64,000 nt of DNA from Escherichia coli (GTDB lineage: Bacteria; Pseudomonadota; Gammaproteobacteria; Enterobacterales; Enterobacteriaceae), in the NCBI RefSeq assembly GCF_003334305.1, contig NZ_QOWS01000003.1. One strand, written 5' to 3'. The notes beneath the pieces were generated by a model. It was given only the letters and a program-made list of their open reading frames with translations, was not told the DNA's origin and made no database searches. Positions 38,131 to 38,206 of this stretch are shown piece after piece. Position 1 is the first letter of the stretch. Each line of letters opens with the position of its first letter. A program made the position numbers and the translations under genes.

Positions 38131-38206
38131 GTGAGGGAGGATGACTGCGAGTGGGAGCACGGTTTTCACCCTCTTCCCAGAGAGGCGAGGGGAGCGTCCG
38201 AGCATC
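38131..38206. repeat. copy of GC-rich palindromic repeat (boxC-like) in the melR-melA intergenic region
   Basis: reverse complement CCCCTCGCCTCTCTGGGAAGAGGGTG matches CCCCTCGCCCCTCTGGGGAGAGGGT of the 11231-11333 element at about 22 of 25 positions. Confidence 0.45.

Follow-up and report, generated by a model that had tools for sequence, protein, structure and literature searches.

Why should a mapped bacterial control region contain a copy of a repeat, and does that copy do anything there? The question arises at the divergent melR and melAB promoters in the 64-kb stretch of Escherichia coli DNA analysed here (the window). A sequence-only reading had placed a palindromic repeat at 38131-38206, upstream of melR and beside the MelR/CRP operator, and had proposed that such a structured, GC-rich element could affect melR autoregulation or the melR 5' leader.

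Control sites surrounding the element

The melR-melA intergenic region of the window spans 282 bp (38091-38372), and published regulatory sites were mapped onto its sequence (Table 1). The melR transcript starts 237 bp upstream of the melAB start, and a CRP site lies 41 bp upstream of the melR start (PMC2377442). In the window, the melR start corresponds to 38112 and the melAB start to 38349. By subtraction from the start separation, MelR site 2 is located at -62.5 of the melAB promoter.

The positions reported for the repeat relative to the melR start codon at 38090 proved correct. In addition, the inverted repeat described next to it was identified as MelR sites 1 and 2, and the repeat does adjoin the MelR/CRP operator. 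At position 4 of its 18 nucleotides (38243), MelR site 1 reads ATTACC in the window strain and ATTCCC in K-12, as does site 2. Site 1' we take to be offset by 20 bp from site 1, as described in the mel literature, which fixes its coordinates. That site 1' exists and is occupied by MelR has been reported (PMC2377442). Among all these sites, 38165-38219 is the sole stretch of the control region to which no site is assigned, and the repeat copy lies inside it.

Table 1. Coordinates of genes, regulatory sites and repeats in the window
Feature	Position	Strand	Basis and remarks
melR CDS	37182..38090	-	302 aa; ORF list and RefSeq annotation of identical or near-identical regions
MelR site R	38102-38119		overlaps melR transcript start; -238.5 from melAB start, inferred from the 237-bp start separation (PMC2377442)
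melR -10 hexamer CATAAT	38124..38119	-	hexamer from PMC2377442, located in the sequence
CRP site 2 of melR promoter	38143-38164	-	centre -41.5; AACCGTGCTCCCACTCGCAGTC on the melR strand; mapped from PMC2377442
Hairpin core of the mel repeat copy	38169-38191	-	CCCTCGCCt CTCTG GGaAGAGGG; fuzzy pattern search
MelR site 1'	38220-38237		-120.5 of melAB promoter; computed as 20 bp from mapped site 1
MelR site 1	38240-38257	+	ATTACCATAAACTCAGAT; 18-mer pattern search, 1 mismatch to the K-12 18-mer
CRP site 1	38257-38278		between MelR sites 1 and 2 (PMC2377442); coordinates are the midpoint of both mapped sites
MelR site 2	38278-38295	- (inverted)	perfect 18-mer, pattern search; -174.5 of melR promoter (PMC2377442)
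melA CDS	38373..39728	+	451 aa; ORF list and RefSeq annotation
Two-block BoxC copy	11233-11255		63 bp upstream of the canonical copy, same orientation
Canonical three-block TMECO	11296-11330		no. 22 of 23 listed for MG1655 (PMC4666352)
Two-block BoxC copy	20258-20279		phn region
REP palindromic unit	14977-15010		consensus search, 3 mismatches
REP palindromic unit	22812-22845		consensus search, 3 mismatches
REP palindromic unit	41338-41371		consensus search, 3 mismatches

Identification of the repeat

The repeat family known as BoxC, PIT or TMECO has the published pattern CCCTCNCCC N3-6 GGGNGAGGG N3 GGGNGAGGG (PMC4666352). We built a sequence-only profile from 12 BoxC/TMECO copies, nine of which were additional copies fetched from K-12, with the mel copy excluded, and searched the window with filters switched off. 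The profile matched the mel control region at 38165-38203 on the minus strand (31.8 bits, E 6.5e-9), covering profile positions 6-44 of 61. All other matches within the 64 kb were the profile's own training copies. Similarity in the flanks stretches the element to about 38161-38206 (approximately 46 bp). The family flank 5' of the C block is GCnCGGACGGTCCCC, and in the mel copy the conserved BoxC flank GCTCGGACGCTCCCC ends at 38206. Thus, the right end given by the sequence-only reading was about right. Aligned with the 12 other copies, the mel copy possesses the family 5' flank and both hairpin blocks.

Pattern searches gave analogous results. The hairpin part of the published motif (CCCTCNCCC, a loop of 3-6 nucleotides and GGGNGAGGG) was found within the element with two substitutions in the window strain and one in K-12. 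When up to two substitutions were allowed, the other matches in the 64 kb were the three perfect BoxC copies only. The 26-nt core CACCCTCTTCCCAGAGAGGCGAGGGG (38167-38192) has one further match in the window, at 11295-11320 with three mismatches (0 expected in 100 shuffles), and within-window BLAST assigned this pair an E value of 1e-4. GC content across the element is 0.65. RefSeq annotation shows nothing over it in K-12 or B2 genomes.

That is, a repeat is indeed present in the melR/melAB control region, although its left limit had been drawn too far out. By eye, the stretch 38131-38160 resembles the flank of the copy at 11233 (17/24). We rejected it as repeat DNA, since the profile has no match there and other genera share the stretch, which belongs in their alignment to the CRP-site/-35 part of the melR promoter. 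It is melR -35 and CRP-site DNA.

Two other identities were examined and discarded. A REP consensus search with three mismatches allowed revealed no REP or BIME unit in 38091-38372. The element is not a MelR/CRP operator either: the MelR 18-mer matches only sites 1 and 2, and the GAAAAC tail of the repeat merely overlaps the distal 2-4 bp of CRP site 2, at its outer flank. Elsewhere in the window, one of the REP units lies just downstream of ORF 39807..41252, which follows melA and is presumably melB.

A truncated copy with little folding potential

The third block of the triplex motif (N3 followed by GGGNGAGGG) is absent from the mel copy, whose alignment to the profile does not extend beyond position 44 of 61. 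A fuzzy search for the full three-block pattern at the mel copy found none even with four substitutions allowed. At the junction, GAGGGT is followed directly by GAAAACC, so that the mel copy reads GAGGGTGAAAACC versus GAGGGTTAGGGTGAGGGGAAAACC in three-block copies. The mel copy is not among the 23 TMECOs of MG1655 in Table 1 of PMC4666352; the nearest of these is no. 22 (window 11296-11330). Because the third block is absent, the mel copy is predicted to be unable to form the intrastrand triplex of its family, the third strand being missing.

We then compared predicted folding energies with those of shuffled sequences. The 76-nt stretch 38131-38206 folds at -7.2 kcal/mol (z +1.07). For the 41-nt core we obtained -4.2 kcal/mol (z +0.43) with the mel copy of the window and -6.9 kcal/mol (z -0.8) with that of K-12. 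The canonical copy (11285-11340) reached -13.7 kcal/mol (z -1.83). Across the haplotypes, hairpin positions were paired in 87.5% of cells versus 85.7% in shuffles, with a single compensatory change in one lineage. Hairpin covariation was not above chance, as 78 of the 500 shuffles scored equally high. With a hairpin no more stable than shuffles, a missing third block and covariation at chance, the terms 'palindromic' and 'structured' overstate what the mel copy is.

Distribution and origin

A 382-bp query over the mel region matched 5401 of the 5426 complete E. coli genomes, with at least 80% query coverage in 5399. The element occupies the same place in 5399/5426 genomes, K-12 included, with the same 282-bp intergenic length; that the length is constant was judged from 30 sampled search rows, seven E. 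coli sequences and one sequence from each of three further Escherichia lineages. The comparison with K-12 and other strains that the sequence-only reading had suggested therefore places the element across E. coli. It is not identical there, being the most variable part of the region.

Profile matches at the same place were obtained with K-12, O157, a phylogroup B2 strain, E. whittamii, Escherichia sp. E1V33 and a divergent 'E. coli', and scores in the other Escherichia haplotypes ranged from 34.8 to 14.1 bits. Scanning species-representative genomes with MelR yielded 80 loci, three of them from Escherichia; E. whittamii scored 25.6, Escherichia sp. E1V33 23.6 and the divergent 'E. coli' 22.2 bits. 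In the 77 loci from other genera, of about 3.3 kb each, the BoxC profile had no match. These included Salmonella, Citrobacter, Kluyvera, Klebsiella, Raoultella, Enterobacter, Pantoea, Buttiauxella, Serratia and Vibrio. Among the loci sampled, this truncated copy of a known repeat is thus restricted to Escherichia.

To see what the copy lies between, we aligned 19 mel regions. Site R with the -10 hexamer, CRP site 2 and sites 1', 1, 2 and 2' are conserved across genera, while the spacer is unrelated. Site R is conserved as TTTCCTGRAWTATCAG and site 1' as CTCTGCTTTT; conservation of CRP site 2 is partial. From the GCAC of the CRP site to the GCCG of site 1', we counted 51 nt in Escherichia versus 39 nt in the aligned outgroups. 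The 39-nt spacer, which is more AT-rich, was found in Salmonella, Citrobacter, Kluyvera, Dryocola, Cedecea and Pantoea. Given an unrelated outgroup spacer of different length between shared flanking sites, a BoxC copy of about 46 bp appears to have replaced nearly the whole ancestral spacer. The net gain of 12 bp would correspond to about one helical turn.

The survey also yielded observations on other mel loci. In Klebsiella, Raoultella, Kosakonia and Enterobacter, the melR-melA intergenic region is shorter (about 240-259 bp), and the part of it aligned to CRP site 2 and the melR -10 hexamer of E. coli is either absent or of different sequence. The melR promoter of these four genera may be organised differently. 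Besides the melR-melA locus, several Citrobacter species and Superficieibacter have another melR-like gene (78-80% identity), which is not adjacent to a melA gene. A contig labelled 'Chryseobacterium sp. 18061' contains a Buttiauxella-like melR-melA locus (81% MelR identity), and this assembly is likely to be mislabelled or contaminated.

In E. coli AQ15 (NZ_CP043487.1 4466167-4471316), the mel region looks truncated, and we considered a BoxC-associated deletion. This was rejected: the region is a chain of fragments of about 100-300 bp from many unrelated genes, all annotated as partial pseudogenes. The mosaic probably arose during assembly, and a rearrangement at the repeat is the less likely source.

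Sequence variation at constant length

Over the 382 bp, the window and K-12 differ at eight positions, five of which fall within the 46-bp element. A second haplotype was found in 1012 of the 5426 genomes, among them ATCC 11775, Nissle 1917, ST131, APEC O1 and O18, and ATCC 25922; from these member strains, we take it to be that of phylogroup B2. Counted by hand on alignments, 27 of the 75 positions in 38151-38225 differ between B2 and the window (36%), as do 7 of the 17 positions of the CRP site 1 core, compared with seven differences in each of the flanking 350-nt stretches of melR and melA (2.0%). Substitution in B2 across the element is thus about 18 times the flanking rate. The B2 copy nevertheless still scores as BoxC (14.1 bits, E 0.003), with about 12 profile mismatches, and is further from the K-12 type than that of E. 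whittamii. In most strains, the hairpin blocks carry one or two substitutions.

Among five diverged Escherichia haplotypes we detected no insertions or deletions and very little change in the MelR sites. BoxC repeats have been described as locally highly variable (PMC4666352). As the source of the B2 divergence, a hotspot, the import of a patch and an old polymorphism are all conceivable. The 18-fold excess could also reflect selection for a different regulatory set point instead of absent constraint.

A proposed role as linker DNA

For the melR promoter to be optimally repressed, MelR must occupy site R together with sites 2, 1 and 1' (PMC2377442). In the same study, repression fell when 5 bp were removed from or added to the linker and returned when 10 bp were removed. 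Insertion of 41 or 91 bp of pBR322 DNA restored repression partly, and the intervening DNA was compacted, yet accessible to DNase I (PMC2377442).

Free sequence drift, fixed length and this published function of the linker lead us to propose that the element is a passive linker in the MelR repression complex, without a sequence-specific role. We assign this reading a probability of roughly 0.7. Besides the family membership, truncation, position, Escherichia restriction, free variation and fixed length observed above, we infer that length and phase alone are what matter.

According to this proposal, an ancestor of the sampled Escherichia lineages would have acquired a BoxC copy that left hardly anything of the earlier spacer between site 1' and CRP site 2. 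The decayed copy would now make up about 46 bp of the 55-bp linker. The linker would set the distance and helical phase of MelR at site R relative to MelR at sites 1', 1 and 2 within the four-MelR repression complex, and the GAAAAC tail of the copy would double as the outer flank of CRP site 2. An effect on melR autoregulation, as the sequence-only reading had proposed, is plausible via spacer length and phase only.

Alternative explanations

Could the element instead act as RNA, by forming structure within the melR 5' leader? Beyond its closeness to the melR start codon, nothing favours this idea. The melR leader is 22 nt long (38112..38091), and the element is outside both known transcripts: it precedes the melR start by 53 bp in the melR direction and lies far upstream of the melAB start. 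A promoter and terminator scan of 37950-38500 on both strands found nothing, including no promoter-like site from which the element would be transcribed. Rfam, searched at a permissive threshold over 36900-38500, returned chance-level matches only; those over the element had E values of 3.6-7.2, far below gathering scores. Unless there is an unmapped melR start further upstream, the position of the element upstream of the mapped start rules out an effect on the leader, and we give RNA-level action almost no credence. A sequence-dependent role at the DNA level is a further alternative. Relative to the melR promoter, the element extends from -53 to -91, with CRP site 2 on one side and MelR site 1' on the other. 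At promoters with CRP at -41.5, the alpha-CTD of RNA polymerase docks upstream of CRP. A GC-rich element at this docking place, where outgroup spacers are unrelated and more AT-rich, might have altered the CRP-dependent strength of the melR promoter, and hence the MelR level, in Escherichia, or the element might bind another protein. However, its sequence is highly variable within E. coli, and we know of no BoxC-binding protein. Furthermore, the unrepressed melR promoter yields 300-350 Miller units with or without upstream sequence (PMC2377442), in fragments whose endpoints are not placed on the element. We consider such a role unlikely.

The remaining alternatives concern structure and variability. 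Under negative supercoiling between the divergent promoters, the element might extrude a cruciform or another non-B structure, which would couple or tune melR and melAB transcription. Its placement between the two promoters fits this explanation, as does the fact that most haplotypes retain the outer 5-bp stem, in which B2 shows one double change from C-G to T-A. Members of the family form stable intrastrand triplexes in vitro as single strands (PMC4666352). However, the family triplex is not expected to form without the third block, the hairpin (-4.2 to -6.9 kcal/mol) is no better than shuffles, covariation is at chance, and two haplotypes (E1V33 and L009) disrupt pairing in the stem. Even for intact BoxC copies, no promoter, terminator or in vivo triplex activity was found, and no triplex in double-stranded DNA (PMC4666352). 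A structural role therefore appears improbable to us. Finally, the BoxC relic might be a mutation or recombination hotspot that produces functionally distinct mel alleles, with B2 strains setting a different MelR level or melAB induction threshold than K-12-type strains. If so, a repeat element would drive regulatory divergence while helical phase is held constant. We regard this explanation as doubtful. A literature search for mel among 'switched' intergenic regions found no paper. The B2 haplotype is nonetheless the one feature of the region worth following up.

A spacer in a textbook regulatory region is, by these results, the relic of a repeat element, and the replacement that produced it would have shifted the distance between the flanking sites by roughly one helical turn. 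In practice this changes little, and the element was already present in every published study of the mel promoters, all of them performed with K-12. The mel linker is a clean natural example of DNA whose length is fixed while its sequence drifts. In addition, truncated two-block copies are added to a family that is usually counted via its three-block triplex motif.

Comparison with known systems

The closest relatives of the mel copy are the BoxC/PIT/TMECO repeats themselves (Holder et al. 2015, PMC4666352). Like them, the mel copy is intergenic and lies in a locally hypervariable stretch, and it has in common with them the 5' flank GCnCGGACGGTC and, after it, the C block CCCTCGCCC, loop and first G block. 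Missing from it are the TTA/CCG loop and the second G block, and with them the three-block triplex pattern.

The two-block copies at 20258-20279 and 11233-11255 resemble it more closely: as in the mel copy, both hairpin blocks are followed by GAGGG(A/T)GAAAAC, whereas three-block copies read GAGGGTTAGGGTGAGGGGAAAAC. Profile scores of these two copies (32.8 and 32.7 bits) compare with 31.8 bits for the mel copy. Their hairpin blocks are perfect, while the mel copy carries two substitutions and lies inside a mapped regulatory region. Judged by the shared junction, the two-block copies look like a deletion-derived subfamily. Published BoxC pairs are inverted, unlike the pair formed by 11233-11255 and 11296-11330. 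REP/BIME elements of E. coli, like the BoxC copy at mel, are short and GC-rich intergenic repeats that form imperfect palindromes, although the sequence family differs.

With regard to function, the AraC O2-I1 loop and the GalR repressosome offer the nearest parallel, an analogy that was drawn for MelR by the authors of PMC2377442 themselves. In these systems, too, DNA lies between distant operators of one regulator, and its phase matters while its sequence does not. The MelR complex differs in that it consists of four monomers and is apparently compacted and not looped, and the mel linker differs in being derived from a repeat.
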